DNA from: Candidatus Omnitrophota bacterium
GTDB lineage: Bacteria > Omnitrophota > Gorgyraeia > Gygaellales > Profunditerraquicolaceae
Length of the DNA: 64,000 nt
Direction of reading: 5' to 3'
Assembly (NCBI GenBank): GCA_041662125.1
Contig: JBAZTA010000008.1
Span: forward strand, 2,807 to 66,806
Shown: positions 18,135 to 64,000 of the stretch, one piece after another
Numbering within the stretch: the stretch's first letter is position 1
How the letters are laid out: each line of letters begins with the position of its first letter
Notes under the pieces: generated by a model
What the model was told of the DNA's origin: nothing
Database searches by the model: none
The model's input: only the letters and a program-made list of their open reading frames with translations
Position numbers and translations under genes: made by a program

Positions 18135-18158
18135 AAATAGACTCTCCGATCTTGTGGT

Positions 18159-20612: not shown

Positions 20613-20658
20613 GATCTAATCTTTCTGTTCTAAATTAAAGACCACCACAAGTTCCGAA

Positions 20659-22722: not shown

Positions 22723-24629
22723 GACCAGCTCTCTCCAGGTTTCCTTGGTCCCAGGACCACTGCGGCGTGACCTGGGATCCTCCAGTTATCGTGAGTATCT
22801 GCGGGAGGGGTTCCGGAGCCTCCGTACGTGGGATTTTCGCTCGACCAAATGATTTTCCAACGCATGAATTCAGGTGGAGCCAGCAGGGGTTCAGGCGAGG
22901 GATTAAGGTGCAAGTCCAGGCCAAAATTCACCACCACCAATCTATCATCTCCATTTTCTCCGAAGAAGCGCAAGACGAAGGCCTCCGGCCCCAGGACAGC
23001 GCCGTCCAGTCCGCGATATCGCTGGGAGCTAAACACAGGGTCCTCTCGTCGAAGCTTTATCAAGTCACGATGAAGGGCATAAATTCCAGAGTGGCTCTGC
23101 CGTTCCGACATATCGAGTTTTGCTTGTCTGAACAGGGCCGGATCCGAGGGATCAGGGAGCCGATGTTTCATGTCAGGAGCATCAAGACTGAAAAATTGTT
23201 GAAGGAATTCGATCCTCCCCTTGTGTACTTTTCCAGCCAATCTCTTTTCATGGTCCGCAAAATAGTGAAATGGGCTGGATGCCGCAAACTCCTGGCCCTG
23301 GAAGAGCATCGGGGCGCCAGGACCTAACAGCATGAGAGCGGTCATTGCCCTGTAGCGCCCTGGACTGGTAAGGTTGTGGCATCGTAGCCCCCCGGCGGCG
23401 TTGGCGATCTGATCGTGATTCTGAATAAACGTTACGAACGTAGAAGGCTTTAGATCAAGACAAGGGGTCCCACGACGTTTCTTTTGGTGTTTGTACCGCT
23501 GTCCTTGGAACAGGAAACCCCACTTGGCGGCGGAAATAAATTCCTGTGGGGCTCCAAAGTAATCCGTATAATATGCGGGGTTACGCCCAGTAAGAGCCAC
23601 CATGGCGCTGTGGTGGAAATCATCATTCCATAAGGCGTCCATACCGTACCCGCCCTGATCGCACGGCCGCACCAGCTTCACATCTTGCGGTTCATTTTCC
23701 GCCACCAGAATAACGCAACGCTTGCCGGCCGCTCGGCGCGCAGACCGAGTTATGACAGCTAGAATATGTTCCGGTGAATGATCATAGATGTTCTGAGTGG
23801 CGTCCAGTCGCAAACCGTCTAGATGGTATTCGTCGATCCAATAGAAGGCATTGGAACTGAAGAAATCTCTCACGGGCTTGGCGGCGTGTCCGTCGAAATT
23901 GATCGCCTTTCCCCAATCGGTCTCATAACGATCAGTAAAATATTCGTCGGAAAATTTCGACAGATAATTACCGTCCGGGCCCAAGTGATTGTACACAACA
24001 TCAAGGATCACTCCCATTCCTAAGGAATGGGCTTTGTCCACGAATCGGCGAAAATCGTCAGGTCGTCCATAAAGTCGTGTCGGAGCAAAAAGATTCACGC
24101 CGTCATATCCCCAGCCAAAATTTCCCGGAAATTCGGCTACGGGCATCACCTCCACTACCGTTATACCGAGGGAGGCAAGTTCGGGTAGCTCCCGTGCGCC
24201 GCTCTCCCACGTTCCTTCCTGCGTGAAGGTTCCGACGTGCATCTCGTACAATATCTGGCCATCTATCGAAACGCCCGGCCATTCCTGGTCCGTCCAGTTG
24301 AACAACCCCGGATCCACTATCTCTGACGGACCGTGCGGTCCCTTTGGTTGGAAACGCGAAGCTGGATCGGCGTAAACATCTGTCCGCCCGTCCAGGCGAT
24401 AGCTGTACAAAGTGCCGTTTGTCGCTCCAGCCACTAGCCCAGAGAAATACCCGTCAGCGTCCCGAACCAGATCAAAATTCCCGTCCGAATCACTGGGATT
24501 CGATGAGCCCTCTTCGATTACAACCTGTACCTCTTGACAGAGAGGGGCCCATACCCGGAAGTGAGTGGCCTCCCCTCCCCTTGCAACTTCGGCTCCCACG
24601 GGGAGTCGCCTGTTCAAGTCATCTACCAA
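22719..24629 (-). CDS. treZ: Malto-oligosyltrehalose trehalohydrolase (GH13)
   Basis: 636 aa with a TreZ-like N-terminus (RRLPVGAEV…FRVWAP) and a GH13 catalytic core. Confidence 0.8.
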   Translation of the reverse strand: MVDDLNRRLPVGAEVARGGEATHFRVWAPLCQEVQVVIEEGSSNPSDSDGNFDLVRDADGYFSGLVAGATNGTLYSYRLDGRTDVYADPASRFQPKGPHGPSEIVDPGLFNWTDQEWPGVSIDGQILYEMHVGTFTQEGTWESGARELPELASLGITVVEVMPVAEFPGNFGWGYDGVNLFAPTRLYGRPDDFRRFVDKAHSLGMGVILDVVYNHLGPDGNYLSKFSDEYFTDRYETDWGKAINFDGHAAKPVRDFFSSNAFYWIDEYHLDGLRLDATQNIYDHSPEHILAVITRSARRAAGKRCVILVAENEPQDVKLVRPCDQGGYGMDALWNDDFHHSAMVALTGRNPAYYTDYFGAPQEFISAAKWGFLFQGQRYKHQKKRRGTPCLDLKPSTFVTFIQNHDQIANAAGGLRCHNLTSPGRYRAMTALMLLGPGAPMLFQGQEFAASSPFHYFADHEKRLAGKVHKGRIEFLQQFFSLDAPDMKHRLPDPSDPALFRQAKLDMSERQSHSGIYALHRDLIKLRREDPVFSSQRYRGLDGAVLGPEAFVLRFFGENGDDRLVVVNFGLDLHLNPSPEPLLAPPEFMRWKIIWSSENPTYGGSGTPPADTHDNWRIPGHAAVVLGPRKPGESWS

Positions 24630-26165: not shown

Positions 26166-28910
26166 TCATTTCTTTTGATGGCCAGGCTCTTCCTTCTGTT
26201 GTTGCTGAGGCGCCTGTGGCTGCGGGCGTTGCTGAGGCATTTGCTGTCGCTGGATTTGGGGGGCTTGCGGCTGGCGCTGCTGAGGCTGCTCTCGTTGTTG
26301 TTGAGGTTGCGGCTGCTGAACCTGCTCGCGCTGCTGTTGCTGTCTATGTGACTGTTCAGCCTGCTGCTGTTGTTGCTGCTGGCGGCGTCCTTGTTCAGCC
26401 TGTTCTTGCTGGCGCTGGTGTTGCTGTTGTTGAACCTGCTCCTGCCTCTGTTGCTGTTGATGTTGTTGAACCTGGTCGCGCTGTTGTCGCTGACGCTGAC
26501 TCTGCTGAGCTTCTTCTTGCTGGCGCCGTTTTTGATCGACCTGCTGTTGCTGTTGTTCACGTTTGTGCGTCTGTTCAGCCTGTTCTTGCTGGCGCTGGTG
26601 TTGCTGTTGTTTCTCCTGACGTTGATTTTGATCAGCTTGTTCTTGCTGGCGTCGTTTTTGATCAACCTGCTGTTGTTCCTGTTTATGTGACTGCTCAGTT
26701 TGCTCTTGTTGACGGCGCTTTTGCTCAGCCTGTCCCTGTTGTGTCTTCAACTGTTCAGACTGCTGTTGCTGCCTTTGAGCCTGCTCAACCTGTTCTTGTT
26801 TGTGGAGTTTTTGATCAGCCTGCTTCTGAGGCTCAAGCTGTTGGCTTTCAGTCTGTTTCCGGAGATCTTCCTGGCGCCCGCGTAACTGTGTAGGTTGTTG
26901 TCCTCTTTCCGGTTGCTGGCCAACGATCTCAGACTGCTTTTTTCGCTGCTCCTCCAAAGCTTTTTCCAGCCCTTCCCGTTTTTGTTTGTCCTGTTCTATG
27001 GATAGCTGGCTCTCCAGATTTCGCCGTTGGCCGAGAAAGTCCAACCTGCCTGCCGGCCCGGCTTCCGGTGTTTTTCCAAGTTCTTTGAGTTGTCCGAGAA
27101 GCTGATCGCGTTTTCGAACATCCCCCTGTTTTGCAGCCTGATTCGTTATAGAGTCGATCTTCTGGTTTGTGAGTTCCGCTCGTTTTCTCTGTTCGACCGA
27201 TTGTCCGAGTTGCGCAACCTGTGTTTCCAGGTCCTTGCGCTTTTGTGGATTCGGGAATTTTGCGAGGTCTTGCTTCAACGAGGCAAGCTTATCTGGAGTC
27301 AAAAGATCCGCAGCGCGGGGCGCCTCAGTTTTTGTCAGTCGGCCTAACTGCTTTTGAAGGTTTTGAACCTTCTTGGGATCCTGTTCTTTTACGAGCTTCT
27401 GCACGACCTGTTTGACTTGGGTCTGTTTTGCGGATATCGGGAGTTTCCCTTGAATCACATCCTGGTTGATTTTGCTGAGTTCGTCCCTCAAAGCCAGACG
27501 CTTTTGAGGGTCCCGCTCATTGGCGACCCTAGAGCGCAGATCGATCAATTCCTTCCCTGCGACTCCCGCTAACTGCGCCTGAACATTCAGGTCGGTCTTC
27601 ATTTTGTCGCGGAAATTTTGGACTACCTTAAGATTCTTGGGAGAATTGAAGGAACTTGAGACAGCCTGAAACAAATTCTTGCCCGAAGGTAACTTATTGG
27701 CGAACTTGTGTTCTTCCTGCTTCAGACTCGTCACATTCTTTTCGAGACGGTTCAGCCGCCTCATAGCCCAATCCTCTTGAATATTAACATTGGCCAGTTG
27801 ACGTTGAGCCTCCCACAACCTGCCCCTATTGCCGGAGAGTTGAGACAGGTATGCCAGATCACGGTACTGTCGTTGCTGAAGCCTCAAATCTGCCAGATAA
27901 TACTGATCGCTATAAATTATGTTGTCCAGGATGAGGCGCCTGGCGTAGATCTCGATAACGGCAGGATCGAACCTCCAGCCGGTGAATGAGTCTACAGGTA
28001 TGATCCAGCGCCCCACTCCGGGCAGAATTACTACAACGCCCAATCCCGGTTGAGGCTGAAGAACGCGGATCTCATCGTACGGGTAGACGTCTTGGGATTC
28101 CCAGTCTTCAAAGTCGTAATCCGAATTAGAAGAGGATTCCGCATACCGTGGGCCGGGAGAAACTCTCCGTTCGGCCACGCCCGGCTGTGAAGGCGTCACA
28201 GGGCAGATATCCAAATTTGCGACTACGGTTCCGGGAATAGTCGTTCCATCCACAAGCCTGTTAAGATCCTCCGAAGACGAAGCCAGAGCCTCCAGTTTCG
28301 GCTTCCCATCCTCCACGTAAACGGTCTGGCAAGAGGAAAGGACTGTATCCGCAGGCCGAGTCAACGTCAAATTCCTGACCCGGACATTACCGGAAATGAC
28401 CGTTATGACCGCTGTCGTTGGGATGTAAACCTCTACGATGAAATCCACTGGCTCATCACTACTAACGGGCTCAATGGAAGCAGCGGGGGTTAAGACCATG
28501 TAAGGAGCTCCTGAGCTACCTCCGCTCGGCTTGGTCACTCGAAGAAGACCCTGGGTCATTTCAATGACATCCGCCGGACCATGTTCAGTTTCTCTTGTAG
28601 CGAGGAACATGGAGGAAGAGCTGCCGAGCGAGTTCAGTAATCCCGTTTTCCACTTGAGGAACAGTTTTCCGTTTTCGCTCGTGCTCACCGTGTTCCACGC
28701 ATCGACCACGCTCCCTACGGCCAGTTTTACCGGCTCCTGGTCTCGGTCCACAACCACGCTTGCGTCTCCCTGAATGCCTTGTACCGCAGCATGCGGTGGT
28801 CCCACTACCTGGGCGTTCGATGAGGCCGGAGCAGCCACTGCGACACAACACATCACGGCCAAGACAAGAGCCAATTTCATGCTTGCGGCCATTGAGATTT
28901 TCGTCTTCAT
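26166..28910 (-). CDS. Large secreted protein: signal peptide, FecR-like beta-rich N-domain, coiled-coil region with repeated xPQKRxxL motifs, and a Gln/Glu/Arg-rich tandem-repeat C-terminus
   Basis: Long ORF; the likely start is MKTKISM… at 28910, preceded by GGGAGAA, with a hydrophobic signal peptide. The C-terminal 300 aa are repeats of about 60 aa (…KQEQQQVDQKRRQQEQ…). The flanking genes lie on the same strand. Confidence 0.65.
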   Translation of the reverse strand: MKTKISMAASMKLALVLAVMCCVAVAAPASSNAQVVGPPHAAVQGIQGDASVVVDRDQEPVKLAVGSVVDAWNTVSTSENGKLFLKWKTGLLNSLGSSSSMFLATRETEHGPADVIEMTQGLLRVTKPSGGSSGAPYMVLTPAASIEPVSSDEPVDFIVEVYIPTTAVITVISGNVRVRNLTLTRPADTVLSSCQTVYVEDGKPKLEALASSSEDLNRLVDGTTIPGTVVANLDICPVTPSQPGVAERRVSPGPRYAESSSNSDYDFEDWESQDVYPYDEIRVLQPQPGLGVVVILPGVGRWIIPVDSFTGWRFDPAVIEIYARRLILDNIIYSDQYYLADLRLQQRQYRDLAYLSQLSGNRGRLWEAQRQLANVNIQEDWAMRRLNRLEKNVTSLKQEEHKFANKLPSGKNLFQAVSSSFNSPKNLKVVQNFRDKMKTDLNVQAQLAGVAGKELIDLRSRVANERDPQKRLALRDELSKINQDVIQGKLPISAKQTQVKQVVQKLVKEQDPKKVQNLQKQLGRLTKTEAPRAADLLTPDKLASLKQDLAKFPNPQKRKDLETQVAQLGQSVEQRKRAELTNQKIDSITNQAAKQGDVRKRDQLLGQLKELGKTPEAGPAGRLDFLGQRRNLESQLSIEQDKQKREGLEKALEEQRKKQSEIVGQQPERGQQPTQLRGRQEDLRKQTESQQLEPQKQADQKLHKQEQVEQAQRQQQQSEQLKTQQGQAEQKRRQQEQTEQSHKQEQQQVDQKRRQQEQADQNQRQEKQQQHQRQQEQAEQTHKREQQQQQVDQKRRQQEEAQQSQRQRQQRDQVQQHQQQQRQEQVQQQQHQRQQEQAEQGRRQQQQQQQAEQSHRQQQQREQVQQPQPQQQREQPQQRQPQAPQIQRQQMPQQRPQPQAPQQQQKEEPGHQKK
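26170..26900. repeat. Imperfect tandem repeat (about 180–186 bp period) of CAG/CTG/CAA-rich DNA encoding the Q-rich tail; open in all six frames
   Basis: Near-identical strings recur, for example tgttcagcctgttcttgctggcgctggtgttgctgttgtt at about 26390 and about 26573, and cttgctggcg(c/t)cgtttttgatc(g/a)acctgctgttg at about 26515 and about 26641. Shadow ORFs occur on both strands. Confidence 0.8.
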
Positions 28911-29030
28911 GGATAGTTCTCCCATTTTATTTCTTTTGAGTTCAAAGGCCGAGCTAGATCACTTAGCCCATGATTGGAACAGCGAGGCATGCCCTATAAT
29001 TGTCTTAGCTACAAACTCAATCATGTATTG

Positions 29031-29933: not shown

Positions 29934-30440
29934 CTAGTTTTTCCCCCCAAAGAACTCGCGGATTTTCCCATACCACTCAGAGTCAGTGAAGTTCGGCCAT
30001 TTCTTGCTTTCAAAGTTGGGCGCTTTTTCTAGCTGAACCTTGTCTATGTCTACGATGATCGTGTCCGCTTGAGCGCCTGTCTTCACGGATTTCCACGGAA
30101 TGGGTATCAATCGGTCACCGGTTCCGAGCAAACCTCCGGGAGCCAAAACTATATAGTCTAGACATCCATCCTTGCTCAGCACAATATCTTCAATCTTTCC
30201 GAGGTCCTCTCCTTTTTGACTTATCACTTTTTTCCCAAGTATTTTACTTACTCTGTCCGCATGCTCCAGGGCGGTTTTTTCGCTTGTTTGGCTCCGTTCT
30301 GCGCTCGTAGGGGGTTTTACATCGGTTTGAGCCTGGACGCTGGGGGTCGTGCCCACCTCTGGCTCAGCGGCAAGCGCTTGACTTACAAATAAGGTACAGA
30401 CTGCCAGAAAGAGCGTCATAAAGTTTCTCGATTTTTTCAT
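29934..30440 (-). CDS. PRC-barrel domain protein with signal peptide
   Basis: Signal peptide plus a PRC-barrel core (…VISQKGEDLGKIEDIVLSKDGCLDYIVLAPGGLLGTGDRLIPIPW…). Confidence 0.7.
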   Translation of the reverse strand: MKKSRNFMTLFLAVCTLFVSQALAAEPEVGTTPSVQAQTDVKPPTSAERSQTSEKTALEHADRVSKILGKKVISQKGEDLGKIEDIVLSKDGCLDYIVLAPGGLLGTGDRLIPIPWKSVKTGAQADTIIVDIDKVQLEKAPNFESKKWPNFTDSEWYGKIREFFGGKN

Positions 30441-30570
30441 CGAGTTTCTCCTTCCTCCTATTTCGGGATAATTTGACAGGCGTCAGAGCGATGAGGACCC
30501 AGTCCCATTATTTACAGCCAAACACTGAAATTACCGCTTTGACATGCCATAATCGGTGAAACCGAACAGT

Positions 30571-30732
30571 CTACCGCTCCAGCACGATTAGAATACCAGC
30601 AGCGATAGCGAGCAGAGCCAATAAAACACTGACGACCGGATTACCGACAGATAGCGCCTGTAGCAGGCCCGTCACGATCAGCCAGATGCCAAGTAAAAGG
30701 AATCCCAATCTTTTTGTTACGTTCAGATTCAT
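30571..30732 (-). CDS. Small hydrophobic membrane protein (53 aa; missed by ORF track)
   Basis: Manual translation gives MNLNVTKRLGFLLLGIWLIVTGLLQALSVGNPVVSVLLALLAIAAGILIVLER*, two predicted TM helices. Confidence 0.4.
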   Translation of the reverse strand: MNLNVTKRLGFLLLGIWLIVTGLLQALSVGNPVVSVLLALLAIAAGILIVLER

Positions 30733-30792
30733 GTTGTTCACCTCCCTTTTTGAGAACCGAGATTCGTCCTACCGCAGGCCATTCCAGGACCG

Positions 30793-30939
30793 CTAAAGGC
30801 CCCTTCGGCCTTGAAGGAGATTAATCACTATCACCACGAGCGCTATGACCAGCAGAATGTGAATTATGGCGCCCACGGGGTAGGCGACTAAACCTATTAG
30901 CCAAAGAATCAACAAGATTACCACTATAGTCCAAAGCAT
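30793..30939 (-). CDS. lmo0937-family small membrane protein (48 aa; missed by ORF track)
   Basis: Manual translation gives MLWTIVVILLILWLIGLVAYPVGAIIHILLVIALVVIVINLLQGRRGL*, matching the lmo0937 family pattern (MLWTI…HLLLVIA…GRR). Confidence 0.6.
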   Translation of the reverse strand: MLWTIVVILLILWLIGLVAYPVGAIIHILLVIALVVIVINLLQGRRGL

Positions 30940-31054
30940 TTTTTCTCCTCCTTACGTCGCTGTCTTGCGACGATCTAAATCCTTTTGTGAGAAAGGACCA
31001 ACTCCGGCCTGTTTATGAGGCTGCTCTCCCTTTCTCGACTCCGGGTATCCCGTA

Positions 31055-31453
31055 TCAAGCTTTTCTATGATGCAAGGCTTTTCTTGCCTCTTCCGCCAAT
31101 TTCACGTAGTCGACACGTATGAGGTCTAGCTCCTTTTCATCCAATTCCTCCAAATTCAAGAGCCCATTGTGAGCATCTTCCATCACACGAATCAACTCAT
31201 CCAACTTGATGTGTATGGCTTCGGAATCCCTATTTTGGGTATTCTGGATGAGGAATACCATTAGAAAGGTCACAATCGTCGTGCCAGTATTGATGACCAA
31301 TTGCCAGGTGTCACTAAAGCTGAAGATCGGTCCTGTAATGACCCACGCGACAATTACCGAAAATGCAAGGACGAAAGCCGACGGATGACCTGTGGCGCGT
31401 GCCGTCCATTTGGCGAAGCGAGTGAACCGAGATGTGGATTTCGTAGGTTTCAT
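31055..31453 (-). CDS. Low-affinity iron permease-family small membrane protein
   Basis: 132 aa; …SFSDTWQLVINTGTTIVTFLMVFLIQNTQNRDSEAIHIKLDELI… matches the bacterial Iron_permease family pattern. Confidence 0.6.
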   Translation of the reverse strand: MKPTKSTSRFTRFAKWTARATGHPSAFVLAFSVIVAWVITGPIFSFSDTWQLVINTGTTIVTFLMVFLIQNTQNRDSEAIHIKLDELIRVMEDAHNGLLNLEELDEKELDLIRVDYVKLAEEARKALHHRKA

Positions 31454-31492
31454 TTCAACTTATCCTCGTTCCGCGTAAGGCTGGCCGGGTGG

Positions 31493-31690
31493 CTACCAAT
31501 TGCGCAGATGCTCGTCCAGTTCCTTCTCAGCTTCCTCACGTTTGAGCCCGTATTTCTCTTGTAACTTACCAAGTAAATGGTCTCGCTTCCCAGCAACGAC
31601 TTCCAGATCGTTGTCCGTGAGTTTGCCCCACTTCTCTCTAAACTTGCCTTGCAGTTGCTTCCAGTTTCCTTCAATCTGATCCCAGTTCAT
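31493..31690 (-). CDS. CsbD-family general stress protein
   Basis: 65 aa, MNWDQIEGNWKQLQGKFREKWGKLTDNDLEVVAGKRDHLLGKLQEKYG…, with an AAGGAGGGAC RBS. Confidence 0.85.
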   Translation of the reverse strand: MNWDQIEGNWKQLQGKFREKWGKLTDNDLEVVAGKRDHLLGKLQEKYGLKREEAEKELDEHLRNW

Positions 31691-31748
31691 GATTCGTCCC
31701 TCCTTATTGGGGTGCGGCGTTAATTCGCCAGGTTTTCCGGTTTCATGG

Positions 31749-31901
31749 TTAGAGACGGCCCGTCAATAGGAGCACGATCACGATGATCAGCACCACACCA
31801 AGGAGACCGCTGGGGCCACGCCCCCAGCTACGACTATATCCCCAGGTCGGTAGCGCTCCTACGAGCAAAAGGATCAGGATAATTACCAGAATAGTTCCCA
31901 T
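31749..31901 (-). CDS. DUF3309-family small membrane protein (50 aa; missed by ORF track)
   Basis: Manual translation gives MGTILVIILILLLVGALPTWGYSRSWGRGPSGLLGVVLIIVIVLLLTGRL* with a GGAGGGAGAAAAACA RBS. It has the family's PTW..S..WG..PSG core. Confidence 0.6.
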   Translation of the reverse strand: MGTILVIILILLLVGALPTWGYSRSWGRGPSGLLGVVLIIVIVLLLTGRL

Positions 31902-32308
31902 TGTTTTTCTCCCTCCAGACTTTTAAGAATAGCGTCAGTGACATAACCATCACTGGAGACGCTTTTAACCCTTATAATACATGTATGCACCTTGCGTGCC
32001 AATTAAGGCAATGGATAAGGTTTTCCATAAAAGCAACGCTATCAGATAGTTAGGCACAGCGATGCCCGTGGATTGAAACACCAAGGGGCGACAAGAAAGC
32101 GGTTAGTGTCCTACAAACGGTCCACTCAATTGCTGTCACTGTGTTATCAAGGGGTTATATATTTATCAGTGTCTGATGATAGGACACTAACGTGCGGATT
32201 TGGACTAGTTTTCGCTCTCAACATGGGGGTCACTTTCTGTTATTCGTTCCGCCAGTAAGGCAGGTCAAAATCAATTTCACAAAATCGATGTAATATTGAG
32301 CAATTGAA

Positions 32309-32857
32309 TCATGCTCTAGACAGCGAGTTAGGCGTTACCCCACCGTGCATGTTGACCTCATCCGCTTCAGTGTTCTCCAGGATGCTTCGGGCTTTCTCCA
32401 CCTCTTCTGTGCTCCCGTGACAGATTACAAGGAACTTGTCGGCTTTTATTTGGGTTTCATACTTGATGACACTGTCTTTTGGTACGCCTATACTGAACAA
32501 TCCGGCGCCGACTGCGCTGACGCCGCCAACAACTACAGCTCCTTCGAGCGCCCCCACGATCCAGCTCACCAGTGGTCCCGCTACGGCAATGGGGCCTATA
32601 CCGGGAACGAAAAAGAAGGCGGCGCCGAACAGCAAGCCCCAGAGCCCGCCCCAAAAAGCGCCGATCTTTCCCCAGGCCTTCATACGGTCCCCAGTATTAT
32701 AGTATCCGACCACATGCTCATCAGAGTGATAGTCCTTGCCCACTACAGACAGCTTCTTCATGTCAAGCCCTGCCTTCTGGAGTTCTCTGACAGCAGACTC
32801 CGCCGCGGTATGAGTGTTGTACACTCCAGCGACCGCCTTGTTTCCTGTAACGTTCAT
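32309..32857 (-). CDS. General stress protein 17M (YflT)-like, glycine-zipper membrane protein
   Basis: N-terminal VAGVYNTHTAAESAVRELQKAG…LSVVGKD, a central Gly-rich TM region (GAFWGGLWGLLFGAAFF), and C-terminal …KFLVICHGSTEEVEKARSILE. This is the YflT-like arrangement. Confidence 0.5.
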   Translation of the reverse strand: MNVTGNKAVAGVYNTHTAAESAVRELQKAGLDMKKLSVVGKDYHSDEHVVGYYNTGDRMKAWGKIGAFWGGLWGLLFGAAFFFVPGIGPIAVAGPLVSWIVGALEGAVVVGGVSAVGAGLFSIGVPKDSVIKYETQIKADKFLVICHGSTEEVEKARSILENTEADEVNMHGGVTPNSLSRA

Positions 32858-32946: not shown

Positions 32947-33591
32947 CTAGCGCCGGTGGTTTTTCAGGTCTTTTCCTTTTCCGCCGTCAATTAGGATCGG
33001 TCGCGCTTCTTCAGTTTTTTTCGGGCTTACCGCATCACTTTGAGCCGTTTTTGCCCCTCCAGAGTATTGGCGAATAACAATGTTCAGGGGATCGGATTCA
33101 GAGAATCTGCTCTTGGCGTAAAACTGAGTTGAACTTTCTCTTGCAAAAGTCCTTAGCCGTTCCTTCAATTGAGTCGTCAATCTAGCTCGAGCAGACTCTA
33201 TTAAACGCATGTATTCGGCGAACAGATTCGCCGAATAAAGCTGTTTGTAGTCAGGGCTCTGAATAAGCTCATGGTACACCTTGACAAACCTTTCATGTTC
33301 GGGGGCTCCGGCGAGATGACTAAATACTCGATTAATTAGTTCGCCATTCAATTGCATGGAATCTGTCGATGATTGTCGCGACAAATGCGCTAACATGGAT
33401 GTTCGTTTCTCAGCCTCATAGCACCGTGCTATGTCACGCTCCATCGATTCCAGGTCCTGTATCTGTTCGATCAATTGATAAGCGCTGTCATCGAATGGTA
33501 TCGACAAGTCCTGCGATCGAACGGTACCCGGCGTCATGATGATCGTCGCAACCAACAAGAGCGAGCCCAAAAGTTTAGTTTTAGTCTTCAT
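32947..33591 (-). CDS. Hypothetical secreted protein (signal peptide)
   Basis: 214 aa; N-terminal MKTKTKLLGSLLLVATIIMTPGTVRS signal peptide; no recognised domain. Confidence 0.45.
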   Translation of the reverse strand: MKTKTKLLGSLLLVATIIMTPGTVRSQDLSIPFDDSAYQLIEQIQDLESMERDIARCYEAEKRTSMLAHLSRQSSTDSMQLNGELINRVFSHLAGAPEHERFVKVYHELIQSPDYKQLYSANLFAEYMRLIESARARLTTQLKERLRTFARESSTQFYAKSRFSESDPLNIVIRQYSGGAKTAQSDAVSPKKTEEARPILIDGGKGKDLKNHRR

Positions 33592-33613: not shown

Positions 33614-33832
33614 TTATTTAGTGAAATGAGCCCAAGAGCCAAATGAGACAAGATTTTCAAAATCTTTGGTGGTAACATGATCGGAGCCAAGCATGGCCTC
33701 AATACAATGAAAAGCTTGCATCCGCCAATGCTGCAAAGCGGCCGGATCAAAATCAGAGTCGAGCACATACCAGCCCGCAGCTATTAAATTGTCGATTCGC
33801 TGTTCAATAGACATTGGAGTTCTTTCTATCAA
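33614..33832 (-). CDS. Small hypothetical protein, paralog of 54087..54332
   Basis: 72 aa sharing the pattern ID.L…G…L..DFDP….WR.QAF.C with the 54087..54332 ORF. Each lies downstream of a copy of the repeated intergenic element. Confidence 0.45.
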   Translation of the reverse strand: MIERTPMSIEQRIDNLIAAGWYVLDSDFDPAALQHWRMQAFHCIEAMLGSDHVTTKDFENLVSFGSWAHFTK

Positions 33833-33957
33833 GAAGATTCCCTGAACAACCTTCCCAAGAGAGACGCCTCCAAAGTGATACCTTTGCAGATGTCCACACT
33901 TACAGGGCCTGGTCCAGTTAACTCAAAAAACGTTTCACAATATGGTAACGGAGATAG

Positions 33958-34240
33958 TATAACCCTTGCCGTAAATAGAGCACATTTCGTGCCAACTGTC
34001 CGACGCAGAACCACCTGCTTGGAAAGCTAAACCTAATTAAATACTTACGTATAGCGGCAGAGATTGGTGTGACTTACGAAGCGTCTACAATAGGAGCTGA
34101 ACGAGGGAAATGTGCCCTAGAAACGGGCCATACAATTCCTGATGTGTGTTTTATCAAGGGGTTAAGAATTAATCTGGTGTCTTAATGTAGGTCAATCATC
34201 CAGGCCTGCGGTGCGATTTCCGCTCTCAATTTCGGATTGT
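33958..34240. repeat. Repeated intergenic element, copy A (conserved core 34066..34240)
   Basis: Core gtgacttacgaag…gtgccctagaaacgggccatacaattcctgatgtgtgttttatcaagg…ggtgtcttaat…ggcctgcggtgcgatttccgctc..aatttcg recurs at 54605..54778 and partly at 53876..53995. Confidence 0.75.
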
Positions 34241-34384
34241 AAAGCCTCCCTGAGCTTCCTGTATCGTAGGATCAGGCTGTTTCTTGAACTGTAGTGGCCG
34301 AACAGTGAGTGTGCTTTGATTTCGAGTTCGGGGATAATTCGCTACGCTAGCGCCTTGCGTTGCGTTGTTACCACGAGGCTCGCG

Positions 34385-37300
34385 TTATCGCCCACGAGGC
34401 AGTGGGCGCATGGCAGTCAAGCGAGTGCATTGGAGAGCGTTTTCATTGGTCACCATGGTTTCTTCAGCGACTGACGAAATAATGCTTGAGGCCTGGATCA
34501 GAGACGCGATGTGATGAATGAAGAGAATGAGAGCGACGATGCCGCTGATCGCCAGTAGGATGCCGACAAACACTGCCAGGCTCGGGACGAAATCGCCCTC
34601 GTCGCCGCTGCGGATGCTCCGCAACACGATCAGGCAATAGGTGAAAATGCCCGCGAACATTCCGAGCACGACCTGCGTGACTGTGTCACGCATGAAGTTC
34701 CGTAGGATGCGCGAGGTGTATTGGCTCGAGGCCAGCATCAGGGTCATCAAGGTCATCGAAAACGTGATCCCCACCACGGTCATCATCGAACCGGCAATCG
34801 TGGACAACATCAGGCGCGCGCGAGCGGCGACGACATCGGATGTCAAGTCGGGCGGTGTCTTGGCTTTGGAGGGATCTAAAACCCGATACGCCAGCAGTTT
34901 CACGCGGTCGCTCACCAGGGCCCACACCAGCGCATAACCCCAGACGAACAGCGCATAACCCCAGCCGAGGGGTGTCATAAACAGTCCATAAACCGCAATT
35001 AGAGTCGCCAGCGTTTGCGTGCCGAGCACTGCCACCAATAGGATCTTGGCGGGGCGAATGGACCAGAACGGGCCTCGCGTGCGCGTCAGGAAAATCGTGA
35101 GATGACCGGCCACCGACAGCATAAGATACATCATGGTCTGGAGATCTGGACGGTTGAGGTGAAAGACGCTGGCGCCAAGGTAGAACAGTCCAAAAGCCGC
35201 CACCGGGCCGATGACGCCCAGCACGGTGGCGATCCCAAGCACCATTCGCATGTTCCAGGCCTCGGGCTCGTCCTTGTAATGAACGTTGTCATAAGCAATG
35301 GACAGAATGGCGCCATCATTGAGCAACGCCAGCATCACGATCATTATCGCCGTCAATGGATAAAAGTTAAAGATCAGGATCGCCAGCGTCATGAACAACA
35401 GCACGCGCAGCGTCTCGGCGATGCGGTACATGGCGTAACTGTTCATCCGCTGAAAGATTTTGCGACTCTCCTTGATAGCGTCAATAATCACTGACAGGCC
35501 GTCGGTCAGAAGGACGATGGCCGCAGCGGCGCGCGCAGCGTCAGTCGCGCCCGACACGGCGACGCCGCAATCGGCTTTCTTCAACGCGGGGGCGTCATTC
35601 ACACCGTCGCCAGTCATGCCGACGATGTGGCCGCGTTTTTGCAACACATCCACAATGTGGAACTTGTGTTCGGGGAACACCTGGGCGAAACCATCGGCGT
35701 TCTCGATGGACTCGGCCACCGCCGAAGTCTCTTCCCGCTTTACGTCGCCCAGGCCGCTGGCGTCGAGAATATTTGCGCCCATCCCTAGCTTCTTGGCGGT
35801 TTCCTGGGCGATGGCCAGTTGATCGCCCGTAACCATTTTGATCTTAACTCCCATCTGGGCAGCAGTCGCGATGGTTGACTTAGCGTCTTCCCGTGGCGGA
35901 TCGAACAGGGGCAACACACCAAGAAACTGCCATTGGCCGTCTCCCCCGGCCCGCGCCACACCCAACGAACGAAAACCGCGCACAGCAAATTCGTTAACCG
36001 CTTTGTCGACGGCGGGCTTCACCTGCCCTGCATTGGACGAAAGTTCCAGAATCACCTGTGGAGCGCCCTTCGTCACCTTGAATTCCTTTCCGTCGGCGCC
36101 TTTGACAGTGGCTTCGGTGCGCTTATGCACAGGGTCGAACGGCTGGAAATGAACCACCTGGTAGCCTTTCAATGCCTGATCATTTTGCAGGCCACCCAGT
36201 ACAGCCAGGTCGATAGTATCCTTATTGTCCGCGCGCGACGCCAGCGCGGCGTTGAGGATAACTTGATCGGCGGGGACATTGTTCACGCTGAACGGATCCC
36301 CCAGCGTCAGCTTGTTCTGGGTAAGTGTGCCGGTCTTGTCTGCGCATAGGACGTCCACGCCGGCCAATTCCTCGATGGCCACCAACCGGCTCACAATCGC
36401 CTCTTTCTTGGCGAGCAGGCGTGCGCCGACCGCCATCGTCACCGACAACACCGTTGGCATCGCCACCGGAATCGCTGCCACCGTCAGCACCAATGCGAAC
36501 TGCAAAGTGGTGAGGATCGGGTCGCCGCGGAAGATCGCGACGGTGATAATTACCGCCACCAGCGCGACCGCTAGGAGTATCAGGAAATTGCCAATCTTCA
36601 GCACCGCGCGTTGAAAGTGGCTGACGGTGTGGGCTTCCTGAACCAGTTGCGCAGTCTTGCCGAAGTAGGTGTTGGCGCCTGTGGCATAGACCATCGCGCC
36701 AATTTCCCCCTGACGAATGATCGAACCTGAAAAGACCGCCTCGCCGGGTTTTCGGGTGGCTGGCAACGACTCTCCCGTCAGCGCGGACTGATCCACCTCC
36801 ACCGGGTCGCCCTCCAGCAAGCGCGCATCGGCCGGCACAATGTCCCCCAGGCGCACGCGGATAACGTCGCCCGGCGTCAATTCGCTCGCTGGCGCAGTGA
36901 TCCACTTGCCATCACGTTTTACCCGGGCATTGATGGCCAGCTTGGCCTTCAGGGCGGCGATGGCGTTTTCCGCCTGGTGCTCTTCCCAGAATCCGACCAC
37001 TGCGTTGGCCACAAGCAATAGGAGGATGATGAAAAAATCCGGCCAATGCCGGACCACGCCCGACAGAATCACCGCGACTTCGATCATCCACGGGATCGGG
37101 CCCCAAAAATAGGTGAGGAATTTCAGGAACGGGTTAATTTTCTTTTCTTCAATCTCGTTAGGTCCATATTGGGTCAGCCGTTTCTGGGCCTCAGCTTGAC
37201 TTAGGCCGTCCGGCGTCGACGCCAATTTTTTCTGCAGTTCCTGCATAGGAAGAGATTTTAAATCGTCCTTGGCCTCAGGCTTGGCCCCCGGCTTCGCCTC

Positions 37301-37417
37301 GGGCTTATCCGCGTTCGGTTTCACGATGACTATCCTCCTCTTCTTGGCGCCACCACCGAGTCCCGGTCCAGAGGGGCCACGGGAAATCGATGGACAGGCG
37401 TCGTCGGACAATCTCAT
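34385..37417 (-). CDS. Plasma-membrane-type (P3A) H+-ATPase with an unusual C-terminal DUF2254-like membrane extension
   Basis: PMA1-like signatures ([41 protein letters not shown]) and 10 TM helices. About 160 extra C-terminal residues (…LMLSTIAGSMMTVVGITFSMTLMTLMLASSQYTSRILRNFMRD…) resemble the N-terminus of DUF2254 proteins. The start is uncertain (37417 or the internal MQELQ at 37246). Confidence 0.8.
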   Translation of the reverse strand: MRLSDDACPSISRGPSGPGLGGGAKKRRIVIVKPNADKPEAKPGAKPEAKDDLKSLPMQELQKKLASTPDGLSQAEAQKRLTQYGPNEIEEKKINPFLKFLTYFWGPIPWMIEVAVILSGVVRHWPDFFIILLLLVANAVVGFWEEHQAENAIAALKAKLAINARVKRDGKWITAPASELTPGDVIRVRLGDIVPADARLLEGDPVEVDQSALTGESLPATRKPGEAVFSGSIIRQGEIGAMVYATGANTYFGKTAQLVQEAHTVSHFQRAVLKIGNFLILLAVALVAVIITVAIFRGDPILTTLQFALVLTVAAIPVAMPTVLSVTMAVGARLLAKKEAIVSRLVAIEELAGVDVLCADKTGTLTQNKLTLGDPFSVNNVPADQVILNAALASRADNKDTIDLAVLGGLQNDQALKGYQVVHFQPFDPVHKRTEATVKGADGKEFKVTKGAPQVILELSSNAGQVKPAVDKAVNEFAVRGFRSLGVARAGGDGQWQFLGVLPLFDPPREDAKSTIATAAQMGVKIKMVTGDQLAIAQETAKKLGMGANILDASGLGDVKREETSAVAESIENADGFAQVFPEHKFHIVDVLQKRGHIVGMTGDGVNDAPALKKADCGVAVSGATDAARAAAAIVLLTDGLSVIIDAIKESRKIFQRMNSYAMYRIAETLRVLLFMTLAILIFNFYPLTAIMIVMLALLNDGAILSIAYDNVHYKDEPEAWNMRMVLGIATVLGVIGPVAAFGLFYLGASVFHLNRPDLQTMMYLMLSVAGHLTIFLTRTRGPFWSIRPAKILLVAVLGTQTLATLIAVYGLFMTPLGWGYALFVWGYALVWALVSDRVKLLAYRVLDPSKAKTPPDLTSDVVAARARLMLSTIAGSMMTVVGITFSMTLMTLMLASSQYTSRILRNFMRDTVTQVVLGMFAGIFTYCLIVLRSIRSGDEGDFVPSLAVFVGILLAISGIVALILFIHHIASLIQASSIISSVAEETMVTNENALQCTRLTAMRPLPRGR

Positions 37418-50670: not shown

Positions 50671-52322
50671 CTAAACCGACGACGCCAGAGCGTCACTGAC
50701 TATCGTCTGGGCTTCCTCCAGGATGCGACGCATATGATCCGGTCCCAGGAAGCTCTCCGCATAAATCTTGTAGATATTCTCGGTCCCTGATGGCCGCGCC
50801 GCAAACCATCCGTTCCCAGCCACCACTTTCAATCCGCCGATGGGAGCGCCGTTGCCCGGCGCGTGCGTGAGGATGGCCTGGACTTTTTCGCCCGCCAGCT
50901 CGGTGAGCTTAACTTGCTGGGGTGATAGCTTCGCCAACCGTTCCTTTTGGTCCGGAGTGGCTGACGCCTCAACACGTTCGTAGGCAGGTTCACCGAACTC
51001 GAGCGTGAGTTCGTGGTAAATTTCGCCGGGATCGCGTCCCGTTCGGGCCGTGATCTCCGCCGCCAGCAAAGCCGGGACAATTCCATCTTTGTCCGTCGTC
51101 CAGACCGCGCCATTTAGACGAGCAAAGGACGCCCCTGCGCTCTCTTCGCCACCGAATCCGAGCGACCCTTCGAGAAGGCCAGCAACGAACCACTTGAATC
51201 CAACCGGCGTCTCGTAGAGCTTCCGGCCAAGTTTCTCCGTGACGCGATCAATCATCTGACTGCTCACCACTGTCTTGCCTACAGCCGCTTCCTTGCGCCA
51301 CTTCGGCCGGTGTTGAAAGAGGTAGGAGATGGCGACGGAAAGGTAGTGATTGGGAGCAAGCAACCCGCCGCTCCTTGTAACAATCCCGTGGCGATCGTGG
51401 TCGGTGTCGCAGGCGAAAGCGATGTCAAAGCGATCCTTAAAAGGCCGATTAACTTCTGCATCGCATAGGGTGAGGATGGGTCCATACGGATCTGGCCGTC
51501 CCAATCCACAGTCATAAAACGGAAAGTCGGGTCTACGGCCCCGTTAACGATGGTGAGGTTCAACCCATAGCGTTCTGCAATCGGCCCCCAGTAGCGCACC
51601 CCGGCGCCGCCAAGAGGATCCACTCCCAGGCTGATCTTCGCGTCGCGAATGGTGTCCATGTCGATCACATTGCCGAGGTCGCTAACGTAGGCATTGAGGT
51701 AATCGTACCGACGCGTCGTAGGAGAACGAAGGGCTTTCTCGAAAGAAATCCTCTTCAAACCCAGAAGGCCGTTCTCGAGAAACTCGTTCGCCTTCGCTTC
51801 GATCCATGCGGTCACTGCGGATTCCGCGGGCCCGCCGTTTGGTGGATTGTATTTGAAGCCACCATCACGTGGAGGATTATGCGAGGGAGTGATCACAATG
51901 CCGTCGGCGAGCCCTGTCTTGCGCCCGCGGTTGTAAGTGAGAATCGCGTGGGAGATTACGGGCGTCGGAGTATATTCTTCCTTTTCCGCGAGCATGACTT
52001 CCACGCCATTTCCCGCCAGCGCTTCCAGGGCGCTGGCAAAAGCGGGCACTGAAAGGGCATGCGTGTCCATGCCGAGGAACAGAGGACCATCGATCTTCTG
52101 TCGCTCACGATACAGGCAAATAGCCTGAGTAATGGCAAGGATATGCCACTCGTTAAAGGACTTATCGAACGCCGAACCGCGATGCCCTGAGGTGCCGAAC
52201 TTAACCCGTTGTTCCGGCGCCGAAGGGTCAGGCGTCTCGACATAATAGGCTGTGATCAGTCTAGGCACGTCAACCAGCATTGATGTTTCGGCTGGCTTTC
52301 CCGCAAGGGGGGACACTTTCAT
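50671..52322 (-). pseudogene. pgm: Phosphoglucomutase (alpha-D-glucose phosphate-specific) disrupted by a -1 frameshift in an A4/T4 homopolymer
   Basis: The N-terminal half (51279..52322: …GTSGHRG…TPSHNPP…[21 protein letters not shown]) and the C-terminal half (50671..51504: …[21 protein letters not shown]…) are in different frames. They rejoin perfectly if one A is added to the AAAA run at 51439..51442. Confidence 0.75.
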
Positions 52323-53875: not shown

Positions 53876-53995
53876 GGTGTGAGTTACGAACCGTCTACAA
53901 CAGAAGCAGGAGGACGGAACGTGCCCGAAAAATGGGCCATGAAATGCTCGATGTCGGTTATGTCAAAGGCTTAAGAACTCACATAATGTCTAGGT
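53876..53995. repeat. Repeated intergenic element, partial copy B
   Basis: ggtgtgagttacgaaccgtctacaa…gtgcccgaaaaatgggccatgaaatgctcgatgtcggttatgtcaaaggcttaagaa aligns with the 5' half of copies A and C. It lies about 25 nt 5' of the histidine phosphatase start. Confidence 0.65.
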
Positions 53996-54086
53996 TTCGT
54001 CCATTAGTATCAAGCTTCATCTGATCTTCGTTCTCAGTTCCGATTGGCCTTGCCCACAAAATCCGTGTTGTCGTTAAGGCTCCAGC

Positions 54087-54332
54087 CTAATTGTCGCCAA
54101 ACAGTTGTTGGACTGCGCTTAGTATGCCGTAGGCCGCAAGTAGGTCAATTCTTCCGGATTGTCTGACAAAATCCCTAAATTTGTCTGTATAATAATGATT
54201 GTTACCAAGCAAGTTGGTCAGACAATCAAACGCTTGCAGCCTCCAGCGTCTGAACATGGTTGGATCAAAATCAGTTTTAAGAGCGAGTGCGCCTGATTCC
54301 ATCAAATCGTCGATTCGCTTTTCTGAACGCAT
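54087..54332 (-). CDS. Small hypothetical protein, paralog of 33614..33832
   Basis: 81 aa; homologous to the 33614..33832 ORF at both protein and DNA level. Confidence 0.45.
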   Translation of the reverse strand: MRSEKRIDDLMESGALALKTDFDPTMFRRWRLQAFDCLTNLLGNNHYYTDKFRDFVRQSGRIDLLAAYGILSAVQQLFGDN

Positions 54333-54496: not shown

Positions 54497-54778
54497 GTTA
54501 ACCCTTACGATGCAATAAGCACTTTCTGTGCCAAGCGTATCCGATGGAGAATTCTGCACAGAACAACTAGGTTAATTAGATAGTTAGGTATAGTGACTAA
54601 GCATGGTGTGAGTTACGAAGGTGTGAAAGAAGAAGGGAAACCAGAGATATGTGCCCGACAAACGGGCCAAACAATTCCTGATGTGTGTTTTATCAAGTGT
54701 TTATGAATTCCGACGGTGTCTTAATATCGGTCAACAGGATTGGCCTGCGGTGCGATTTTCGCTCGTAATTTCGACTCG
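54497..54778. repeat. Repeated intergenic element, copy C (conserved core 54605..54778)
   Basis: ggtgtgagttacgaag…gtgcccgacaaacgggccaaacaattcctgatgtgtgttttatcaagtg…ggtgtcttaat…ggcctgcggtgcgattttcgctcgtaatttcg. The similarity to copy A extends upstream (gttaacccttacgatgcaataagc versus gtataacccttgccgtaaatagagc). Confidence 0.75.
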
Positions 54779-62894: not shown

Positions 62895-62934
62895 TGAGTC
62901 AATACTAACGTTGTTAGCGTCTGGATAAATGGGG

Positions 62935-63132
62935 CTACCATTTGCTCAGATGCTCATCCAGCTCCTTCTCCGCTTCCTCACGCTTCAGCCCGTATTTCTC
63001 TTGTAACTTACCAAGTAAATGATCTCGCTTCCCGGCAACGACTTCCAGATCGTTGTCCGTGAGTTTGCCCCACTTCTCTCTGAACTTGCCTTGCAGTTGC
63101 TTCCAATTTCCCTCAATCTGATCCCAGTTCAT
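62935..63132 (-). CDS. CsbD-family general stress protein (near-identical paralog of 31493..31690)
   Basis: MNWDQIEGNWKQLQGKFREKWGKLTDNDLEVVAGKRDHLLGKLQEKYGLKREEAEKELDEHLSKW; 64 of 65 residues identical to the other copy and very high DNA identity by eye. AAAGGAGGAC RBS. The track ORF starts upstream at 63174. Confidence 0.85.
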   Translation of the reverse strand: MNWDQIEGNWKQLQGKFREKWGKLTDNDLEVVAGKRDHLLGKLQEKYGLKREEAEKELDEHLSKW

Positions 63133-63201
63133 GTTTCGTCCTCCTTTATTGTTAACAAAGCTGTGTGATTTCATCCATTGCCCAGGTCAAATACGGCCTG
63201 T

Positions 63202-63350
63202 CACTTGGGAGCTTTCCCTAATAACTGTTCCTTGTCCATGTTGACGATCATCGTGTCCGCTTTAGCGCCTGTCTTCACGGCTTTCCACGGAATCGGAATC
63301 AATCGGTCTCCGGTCCCAAGCCAACCCTCTTGCCCAAGCCGTAGTGGCAG
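63202..63350 (-). pseudogene. PRC-barrel gene fragment (C-terminal piece, premature stop)
   Basis: The minus strand reads …LGTGDRLIPIPWKAVKTGAKADTMIVNMDKEQLLGKAPK*, matching the C-terminus of the PRC-barrel gene at 29934..30440. The DNA at about 63213-63345 aligns with about 30030-30140. No N-terminal half is present. Confidence 0.5.
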
Positions 63351-63484: not shown

Positions 63485-63847
63485 TTACGGCTGACTCGAG
63501 CCCGCCGCATAGGCCGCAAAGTATCTATCAATTTTTTCATTCCATTCGGCCGCAGTGAAATCAGGCCATGTCTTACTCTCAAAGCTGAGGGCTTTTTCCA
63601 GGGTCTGCTTATCAATGTCGAGCACCACTGTTCCCTTTTCATCGCCCGTCATCAGAGCGTCAAATGGAATCGGAATCAACACGTCACCTATTCCCAGGAA
63701 ACCTCCGTGAGACAGGATGGCGTATTTTAGACGCCCATCCACGTCCACCATGAAATCCTGTATTGTGCCAAGTTTTTCCTTGTGACGATTCTCCACGATA
63801 GTTTTCAGTAGCTCACTCACTCTCATAGGTACTTTAATTTCCATCAT
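63485..63847 (-). CDS. PRC-barrel domain protein (cytoplasmic)
   Basis: …LGTIQDFMVDVDGRLKYAILSHGGFLGIGDVLIPIPFDAL…. Confidence 0.7.
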   Translation of the reverse strand: MMEIKVPMRVSELLKTIVENRHKEKLGTIQDFMVDVDGRLKYAILSHGGFLGIGDVLIPIPFDALMTGDEKGTVVLDIDKQTLEKALSFESKTWPDFTAAEWNEKIDRYFAAYAAGSSQP

Positions 63848-64000
63848 TTTTCCTTCTCCTCTTTCTCGTGTTTGTATAGGCGTTGCTAATCTCTCCAGGT
63901 TCCGGGAACTGCCCCTGTTAAATTTCGCTACTCCATCATCGGCAACTGCGGCTACGATCTGTTATGCCAAATTTGGCAGAGGCAATCAGCCAAATTGAAA

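Follow-up and report, generated by a model that had tools for sequence, protein, structure and literature searches.

The Pu promoter of the Pseudomonas putida TOL plasmid, served by XylR, and the nifH promoter, served by NifA, are sigma-54 promoters with tandem upstream activating sequences (UAS) and IHF. The phage shock (psp) system comprises the activator PspF and the sigma-54 promoter of pspA, with UAS I/II and IHF. General stress regulons such as those of sigma-B in Bacillus and EcfG/PhyR in Alphaproteobacteria use sigma-70-family factors, -35/-10 promoters and partner-switching control. Here we describe an intergenic element that recurs upstream of minus-strand genes in a 64,000-nucleotide stretch (hereafter the window) of contig JBAZTA010000008.1, deposited as Candidatus Omnitrophota bacterium. 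We propose, with a probability of roughly 80%, that each full copy is a ~270-bp sigma-54 enhancer-promoter cassette composed of activator-binding repeats, an IHF-like site and a promoter.

The sigma-54 regulons of Desulfovibrio vulgaris have been reconstructed (Kazakov et al. 2015, PMC4641369), and the sections of that study drawn on here list DVU3305 under general stress response and transport and mention psp regulons for the Deltaproteobacteria. According to the same sections, sigma-54 activators of this group are co-localised with their target operons, stress regulons included, and such co-localisation is the usual basis of regulon assignment.

Copies of the element and their conservation

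The original prediction listed three copies of a conserved core, and all three are present where it had placed them. A four-way alignment together with an nhmmer profile brings the number of copies in the window to four, however, all on the minus strand like the genes that they precede, as had been proposed for the first three. Copy A (33960-34231) is full and lies 5' of a small open reading frame (ORF), ORF A, while copy B (54499-54770), also full, lies 5' of the related ORF B. The additional copy D (31966-32222, nhmmer E-value 1.7e-74) is more diverged and precedes a DUF3309-CsbD operon. Copy C (53876-54004) is truncated, although it reaches somewhat further than previously delimited, to ~54004; it carries no sigma-54 promoter and abuts the ATG of a histidine-phosphatase gene at 53851.

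The claim that the core is better conserved than its flanks was upheld when the whole intergenic regions of copies A and B were compared in 30-nt windows. Identity ranges from 0.57 to 0.93 between positions 34240 and 34040, and falls to 0.3-0.4 outside, which is the level of shuffled sequence (0.30). The conserved region continues gene-ward beyond the core as originally drawn; both TTGGCAC-N5-nTGC and a CAAGGGTTA box belong to it in copies A, B and D.

Related copies were sought with one pattern scan of reference genomes and one of metagenomes. True copies were found on three 'delta proteobacterium' metagenome-assembled genome (MAG) contigs (L001, L002 and L008; the labels L001-L037 denote related genome or metagenome contigs, or retrieved loci, that hold element copies or activator homologues) and on 16 metagenome contigs. 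Five of the eight genome matches and three of the 19 metagenome matches to the search patterns were dropped as chance matches, and a blastn comparison of the element with plasmids gave no match. From the window, genomes and metagenomes we assembled 21 non-redundant copies (<90% mutual identity), to which the mean pairwise identities given below refer. Overall identity within this set drops to about 0.5, with blocks at 0.70-0.89, spacers at 0.42-0.59 and flanks at 0.28-0.40. This alternation of blocks and spacers, with fixed spacings, argues for protein-binding sites held at set distances, as opposed to an even decay following duplication. Along the direction of transcription, the cassette consists of a distal block, a repeat R1, an IHF-consensus site, a moderately conserved CAGGAATT stretch, a second repeat R2, blocks 6 and 7, the promoter and the CAAGGGTTA box.

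The predicted sigma-54 promoter and start-site box

At 123-136 nt downstream of the core, and before the gene, the minus strand of copies A, B and D carries TTGGCAC-N5-nTGC, a close approximation to the consensus of sigma-54 -24/-12 promoters. In copy A this is TTGGCACGAAATGTGC (33980..33995, with the -24 GG and -12 GC, 136 nt after the start of R2), in copy B TTGGCACAGAAAGTGC (54519-54534) and in copy D TTGGCACGCAAGGTGC (31987-32002). The strict pattern TGGCAC-N5-KTGC occurs three times in 64 kb compared with 0.2 expected matches, and all three are minus-strand matches situated between a core and the gene that follows it. A relaxed sigma-54 pattern allowing two mismatches gave 25 matches versus 30.6 expected and hence no enrichment, which leaves the strict motif as the informative one. 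With relatives and metagenomes included, the sigma-54 motif was found in 28/28 complete copies, a count that excludes C-type copies and those interrupted by the end of a contig.

The distance from R2 to the promoter falls into two classes, 123-128 nt or 136-138 nt, set apart by a 10-nt indel. The two classes thus differ by about one helical turn, and the 63-66 bp between R1 and R2 correspond to ~6 turns. At the level of sequence, the cassette has the features that define sigma-54 promoters and their enhancers. Among the functions suggested in the original prediction, a stress-sigma promoter module comes closest, but the factor would be sigma-54, the promoter lies outside the core then described, and that core corresponds to the upstream enhancer region.

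Transcription would start ~12 nt after the GC, at the CAAGGGTTA box (copy A 33960..33968, copy B 54499-54507, copy D 31966-31974, all minus strand). No other block of the cassette is conserved as highly as this box, (G)CAAGGGTTA(A/T)A, with its mean identity of 0.89. The distance from the start of TGGCAC to AAGGGTTA is 27-28 nt in nearly all copies, and 34 nt in L001a. To our knowledge, there is no requirement for a box of this type at sigma-54 promoters. A similar GCGGGTTATA is carried by the promoter of a distant activator paralogue in L034. Counted from a start ~12 nt past the GC to the start codon, the predicted 5' untranslated regions of DUF3309, small ORF A and small ORF B span about 74-175 nt.

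Two further observations concern copy D. There, and in no other copy, the -24 region and the sequence downstream (31974-32002, minus) also fit a sigma-70 promoter (TTGGCA, 17 nt, TATTAT; 10/12), and a basal sigma-70 start may exist at this copy. The 5' untranslated region of copy D could in addition form a long hairpin (AGCGTC..CAGTGA..TCACTG..GACGCT).

Anatomy of the upstream region

R1 and R2 are direct repeats of ~21 bp, placed 63-66 bp apart (65 nt in copy A), and are the proposed activator-binding sites 1 and 2. R1 has the general form ATGGaCCGACtTTAAGACACC and reads ATTGACCTACATTAAGACACCA in copy A (34175..34196, minus), with counterparts at 54714-54735 in copy B and 32167-32188 in copy D and an R1-like sequence at 53984-54004 in copy C. 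R2, of general form ATGGCCCGTTTtTAGGaCACC, reads ATGGCCCGTTTCTAGGGCACAT in copy A (34110..34131, minus) and is found at 54649-54670, 32104-32125 and 53919-53940 in copies B, D and C respectively. It is R2 that holds the gccc/gggc 'stem' of the original prediction. Both repeats have a mean identity of 0.75, compared with 0.43-0.53 for the spacers, and the motif shared by R1 and R2 occurs six times in the window (0.9 expected), each time inside a copy of the element. Measured upstream from TGGCAC, R2 starts at 123-138 bp and R1 at ~188-203 bp, which places both roughly within the enhancer range of 80-200 bp. The distal block ('R0') and block 6 ('R3') were considered as further repeats of the same kind, but a position weight matrix (PWM) derived from the two repeats gave no consistent matches in either.

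R1 and R2 flank the IHF-consensus site, which is 21 nt from R1 and 33-34 nt from R2. In copy A it reads TAACCCCTTGATA (YAANNNNTTGATW; 34152..34164, minus), and IHF-like sites occupy the same place in copy B (54691-54703), copy D (32145-32157) and, with one mismatch, copy C (53961-53973). The sequence TAACCnnTTGATA (complement YAANNNNTTGATW; IHF consensus WATCAANNNNTTR) is present in 19 of the 21 non-redundant copies, always 33-34 nt before R2, and the site has a mean identity of 0.85. We infer that IHF binds here.

Block 6, the first block of the original prediction, has the general form CTTCGTAAnTCACaCC and reads CTTCGTAAGTCACACC in copy A (34066..34081, minus); the other copies carry it at 54605-54620 (B), 32070-32085 (D) and 53876-53891 (C). 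Its mean identity is 0.71 against 0.43-0.59 in the adjoining spacers. Block 7 is A/T-rich with the consensus CTAACTAnnTAA and a mean identity of 0.70 (copy A 34034..34049, copy B 54576-54587, copy D 32042-32053, all minus), and is possibly a bend or a second architectural site.

Linked activator genes and origin of the distal block

In L019, the stop codon of an 826-aa ORF marks the beginning of the element. Pfam assigns to this ORF PAS domains, Sigma54_activat (2e-59) and, at the C-terminus, HTH_8. We compared 11 activator genes, comprising that of L019 and 10 retrieved homologues with genomic context. The element and its sigma-54 promoter directly follow the activator in all seven genes at 56% identity or above (L019, L028, L029, L030, L032, L033 and L035), with nhmmer E-values of 1e-44 to 1e-94 for the element behind the six retrieved close activators. 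The element follows the activator gene in none of the four paralogues at 51% identity or below (L031 from Desulfomonile tiedjei DSM 6799, L034, L036 and L037). The linkage holds even though the N-terminal sensor regions vary between PAS arrays, a receiver domain and a setting with a KaiC-KaiB-KaiB cluster immediately upstream.

The activator genes also account for the distal block. Where a copy is linked to an activator gene, the codons for the C-terminal residues of the activator (..RDSLYRHMKRFGIEGDNPTAD*) immediately precede R1, and in L032 the activator reading frame extends into R1. The distal block, of general form AATTGAGAGCGAAAAT.., reads AATTGAGAGCGGAAATCGCACC in copy A (34210..34231, minus), where it makes up part of the third block of the original prediction and is collinear with the last codons (..FGIEGDNPT..) of the enhancer-binding protein genes in L028, L030, L019 and L032. 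Local alignment against 300 shuffles showed the distal blocks of copies A and B to be significantly similar to the activator coding tail, with copies C and D less clearly so; copy B scored 16 against the L032 tail, while the best of the 300 shuffles scored 11. To judge by its sequence, the distal block (54749-54770 in copy B, 32202-32222 in copy D) is a relic of the 3' end of a PAS/AAA+/helix-turn-helix (HTH) sigma-54 activator gene. This collinearity and similarity suggest that the dispersed copies arose by duplication of gene tail, enhancer and promoter together.

At the right edge of the window lies a PRC-barrel gene (63485..63847) whose counterpart in L019, L028 and L030, with 82-86% identity, is the gene annotated first behind the activator-linked element. 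The promoter lies ~560-600 nt upstream of the PRC-barrel ATG in these three loci, and 295 nt upstream in L035. On the basis of this identity and of the promoter spacing in relatives, the contig's own activator and a fifth copy of the element are predicted to lie just beyond position 64000 of the window, on the remainder of the 71,386-nt contig.

Several features of the activator loci deserve mention. In L030 (1509-5851), the activator gene comes directly after KaiC-KaiB-KaiB genes, and two close activator homologues (P0064 and P0082) carry a KaiB domain (PF07689) in the same polypeptide, which suggests a KaiBC clock-type input to the regulon in some genomes. In L035, a divergent gene adjoining that of the activator (1869-2147, minus) encodes a 92-aa HU/IHF-family protein (Bac_DNA_binding, GRNPQTG), and the IHF-consensus site of the element at the same locus is degraded (TAACCTACCAATA).

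Downstream genes

The operon behind copy A begins with small ORF A (33614..33814, minus), which encodes 66 aa from the ATG at 33814, a more likely start than the TTG at 33832. It is followed by the genes of a secreted 214-aa protein (32947..33591) and a YflT-like protein (32309..32857). Small ORF B (54087..54332, minus, 81 aa) had been described as a paralogue of ORF A, in agreement with the 43% identity (E-value 4e-19) found here. An AlphaFold2 model (pLDDT, the model's own confidence score, 82) predicts the small ORF family to be a four-helix protein; it matches no Pfam family, and the best PDB match (E-value 0.46) is not significant. Behind copy D, Pfam matches identify a minus-strand series (29934..31901) of DUF3309 (31749..31901), CsbD (31493..31690), an Iron_permease-family protein (31055..31453), two small membrane proteins and a PRC-barrel protein (29934..30440).

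Across all copies the downstream genes vary, and include the small ORF family (in many cases), the DUF3309-CsbD-permease-PRC-barrel operon, PRC-barrel genes, and secreted proteins of 121-224 aa. The idea that the element always precedes the small-ORF family can therefore be set aside. With differing genes downstream, the element behaves as a regulon, which by gene content would be one of small stress-type proteins. A superoxide dismutase is also present in the element neighbourhood.

Copy C runs directly into the histidine-phosphatase start codon. The L033 locus has the order activator, element, small ORF and second element, the latter still with a promoter (TGGCACGAAATCTGC). Copy C is probably the degraded counterpart of this second element, a remnant that has lost its promoter, and the histidine phosphatase is probably co-transcribed from the promoter of copy B.

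Duplication in this region also extends to genes. The CsbD sequence at 31491-31709 recurs at 62933-63151 with 93% DNA identity, and fragments resembling a PRC-barrel 3' end recur at 30030-30134, 63222-63326 and 63599-63703; no long ORF covers 63222-63326, which is perhaps the relic of a pseudogene. From these sequence matches, stress genes of the region have been duplicated repeatedly.

Proposed mechanism and alternative explanations

In the mechanism we propose, sigma-54 holoenzyme would occupy TTGGCAC-N5-nTGC as a closed complex, while a PAS-domain enhancer-binding protein, with an AAA+ sigma-54 interaction domain and a C-terminal Fis-type HTH, would bind R1 and R2. A DNA bend, provided by the IHF site between R1 and R2, by the promoter-proximal A/T-rich block, or by both, would bring the activator to the polymerase. 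In response to an inducing signal, ATP hydrolysis would then open the promoter, with transcription beginning ~12 nt past the GC at the CAAGGGTTA box. The targets would be operons of the four-helix small ORF, DUF3309-CsbD, PRC-barrel, YflT-like and secreted proteins. The ancestral cassette would be the one behind the activator gene, with each duplicate retaining the last ~15 codons of that gene, seen earlier as the third conserved block.

Several observations weigh against this proposal. Neither an activator gene nor rpoN lies within the 64-kb window, which leaves the cognate factors of this genome putative. The position of the IHF-consensus site between the two repeats, and not between enhancer and promoter, is atypical, and the site is degraded in L029, L035 and the second L033 copy. 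Copy C keeps its repeats without a promoter. Both the sigma-54 dependence and the start site are predicted from sequence. As direct repeats, R1 and R2 show internal dyad symmetry only in part: class I R2 can be written as GCCCG-N5-CGGGC and D-type R1 as AGTGTC-N9/10-GACACT (a perfect 6+6 dyad, AGTGTC..GACACT, in R1 of copy D itself), but most other copies have partial dyads, no perfect 6+6 dyad is common to most copies, and reverse-strand PWM matches are weak. Finally, the HTH recognition region is alike in paralogues without the element, for which reason the activator is assigned by gene linkage.

The last two of these points, together with the lack of such an activator in the window, would also suit a sigma-54 promoter whose R1 and R2 repeats are recognised by a factor other than the linked PAS activator (such as a repressor, a nucleoid protein or another enhancer-binding protein), that activator being a historical neighbour; direct repeats are less typical of enhancer-binding-protein sites. 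We regard this as unlikely. The linkage is seen in 7/7 orthologues with varied sensor architectures, down to 56% identity, and in 0/4 distant paralogues, and R1 and R2 are the sole repeated conserved sites at enhancer distance. It is moreover established that sigma-54 promoters always require an enhancer-binding protein (PMC4641369).

The copies clearly arose by duplication, they hold a non-coding relic of the activator 3' end, and copy C is decaying, all of which might be expected if the similarity were simply the residue of a recent segmental duplication with no present function. The original prediction had named this outcome as one that would undo it. While a duplication origin and an activator-tail relic are indeed evident, an absence of function is very improbable, as blocks of 0.70-0.89 identity stand between spacers of 0.42-0.59 and flanks of 0.28-0.40, spacings are fixed to ~1 nt, the only large indel amounts to about one helical turn, and the promoter motif is kept in every complete copy. 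Such a block-and-spacer pattern with fixed spacings shows selective retention.

A role of the core as RNA, be it a riboswitch-like leader, a small RNA or a 3' untranslated element of the upstream gene, could draw on the fact that the core begins 45-110 nt past the stop codon of the upstream minus-strand gene, such that read-through is possible, and on the short hairpin that R2 might form. Rfam, however, gave no match, either at gathering thresholds over the whole window or at E<=1 in both regions. RNAalifold was run on each strand of an alignment of 16 cores (216 columns); it found no consensus structure beyond a 4-5 bp dyad and a covariation term of ~0, and the plus-strand z-score reflects the sequence conservation of the dyad and not covariation. 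For the proposed stem (five pairs in 21 copies), the 76% of paired cells equals the shuffle mean, and 223/500 shuffles reached its covariation score; the gccc/gggc stem is present as a partial dyad, but covariation does not uphold it. The cores contain no sigma-70-type promoter, and the sole terminator-like sequence to overlap a copy, at the distal edge of copy D (32214-32230), is a weak stem on the plus strand, the terminator-like count in the region (two) being no higher than in shuffles. The core moreover lies upstream of a conserved predicted promoter and is partly protein-coding in seven loci. We give the riboswitch, leader and small RNA options scarcely any credence. 

An IHF site flanked by two direct arm-type repeats resembles the arms of integrase att sites and, together with the multi-copy nature of the element, counts in favour of the recombination site or mobile-element end that had also been suggested. 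The element ends have no terminal inverted repeats, and Pfam assigned the ORFs adjoining the copies to stress-type and signalling families, with no integrases or transposases among them. Orientation and distance to the sigma-54 promoter and gene are also fixed, and the primary copy is tied to the activator gene. The chance that the element is an att-type site is negligible.

Other features of the window

Upstream of copy A, a 1010-aa ORF (34385-37417, minus) that stops 110 nt before the element combines a P-type cation ATPase with an N-terminal DUF2254 portion (profile positions 5-166 of 368); the DUF2254 part in L008 is ~386 aa long. Such a structure could stem from a misassembly, from a genuine fusion or from a deletion connected with the cassette's arrival. 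At 50671-52322 (minus), the overlapping ORFs 51279..52322 and 50671..51504 look like two halves of a phosphoglucomutase-type enzyme (GTSGHRG, TPSHNP), which could result from a frameshift, a pseudogene or a sequencing error. The 919-aa product of another ORF (26166-28925, minus) starts with a hydrophobic, signal-like segment, and glutamine, arginine and glutamate abound in its long C-terminal region, which is encoded by degenerate 15-nt-phased repeats at 26188-26841 (families D1, D2 and D5).

A run of 636-938 aa ORFs at 15318-24629 (minus) looks from the translations like a trehalose/glycogen metabolism cluster, with resemblance to malto-oligosyltrehalose synthase, GH57, debranching enzyme and trehalohydrolase. 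Such a cluster would fit the osmotic or general stress theme of the region. The proteins of the contig are deposited under a 'Candidatus Omnitrophota bacterium' MAG (e.g. MFA6218005.1). Named homologues of the small ORF, the activator family and the PRC-barrel protein are mostly from Desulfomonilaceae, Syntrophaceae, Thermodesulfobacteriota or 'delta proteobacterium' MAGs, and the contig may be mis-binned or mislabelled.

Discussion

A puzzling repeat has been made testable: in a lineage represented only by metagenomes, it can be linked to a type of promoter, to a candidate activator and to target operons, and it contains two candidate operator repeats. The type of mechanism is an ordinary, textbook one, while this particular regulon is new to the literature searched, in which no description of it was found; we consider the finding of moderate significance. 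The activator-tail relic in the dispersed copies is a trace of regulon growth by duplication of the whole cassette. A wider, tentative interpretation, which we hold to be possible yet doubtful, is that an uncultured Desulfomonilaceae-like lineage possesses a sigma-54 general-stress-type regulon analogous to those of sigma-B, EcfG or RpoS. It would combine a single AAA+/HTH core with swappable sensors (PAS arrays, a receiver domain, or KaiB next to a KaiC-KaiB-KaiB cluster), expand as copies of a ~300-bp tail-enhancer-promoter unit come to precede further operons, and be wired to KaiBC in some genomes.

The regulons of Desulfovibrio vulgaris belong to broadly the same bacterial group and share the co-localisation of activator gene and target as well as conserved sites ahead of the -24/-12 promoters; the same study lists a GSFTGA-type loop variant, too (PMC4641369). 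They differ in activator family and in sites, and the multi-copy cassette with a gene-tail relic was not met in the sections of that work compared here. Likeness to psp lies in a stress-linked sigma-54 regulon, an activator gene beside the main target promoter and a small helical protein encoded first in the target operon. Unlike PspF, which has no such sensors, the activator here carries PAS, receiver or KaiB-type sensors, its gene is co-directional with the target and not divergent, and the small ORF lacks PspA similarity (no Pfam match, no significant PDB match).

With Pu/XylR and nifH/NifA, the cassette shares a -24 GG/-12 GC promoter, two activator sites >100 bp upstream and an IHF-type bending site, as well as an activator made of sensor, AAA+ and Fis-type HTH. 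Dependence on helical phase is suggested here by the two spacing classes ~10-13 bp apart. Its sites, however, bear no sequence relationship to those of the two systems. R1 and R2, direct repeats with partial dyads, are spaced at 64-65 bp and enclose the IHF-consensus site, and a conserved CAAGGGTTA box is present at the predicted start; the cassette is also known from sequence only. It further differs from classic sigma-54 promoters in being multi-copy and in carrying a gene-tail relic. With the sigma-B and EcfG/PhyR regulons it has overlapping gene content (CsbD, YflT-like and PRC-barrel proteins, beside small membrane or secreted proteins such as DUF3309), whereas its promoter is of the sigma-54 type with an ATP-dependent activator. 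The target genes, the four-helix protein among them, suggest a stress response that runs via sigma-54 and not via a sigma-70-family factor.

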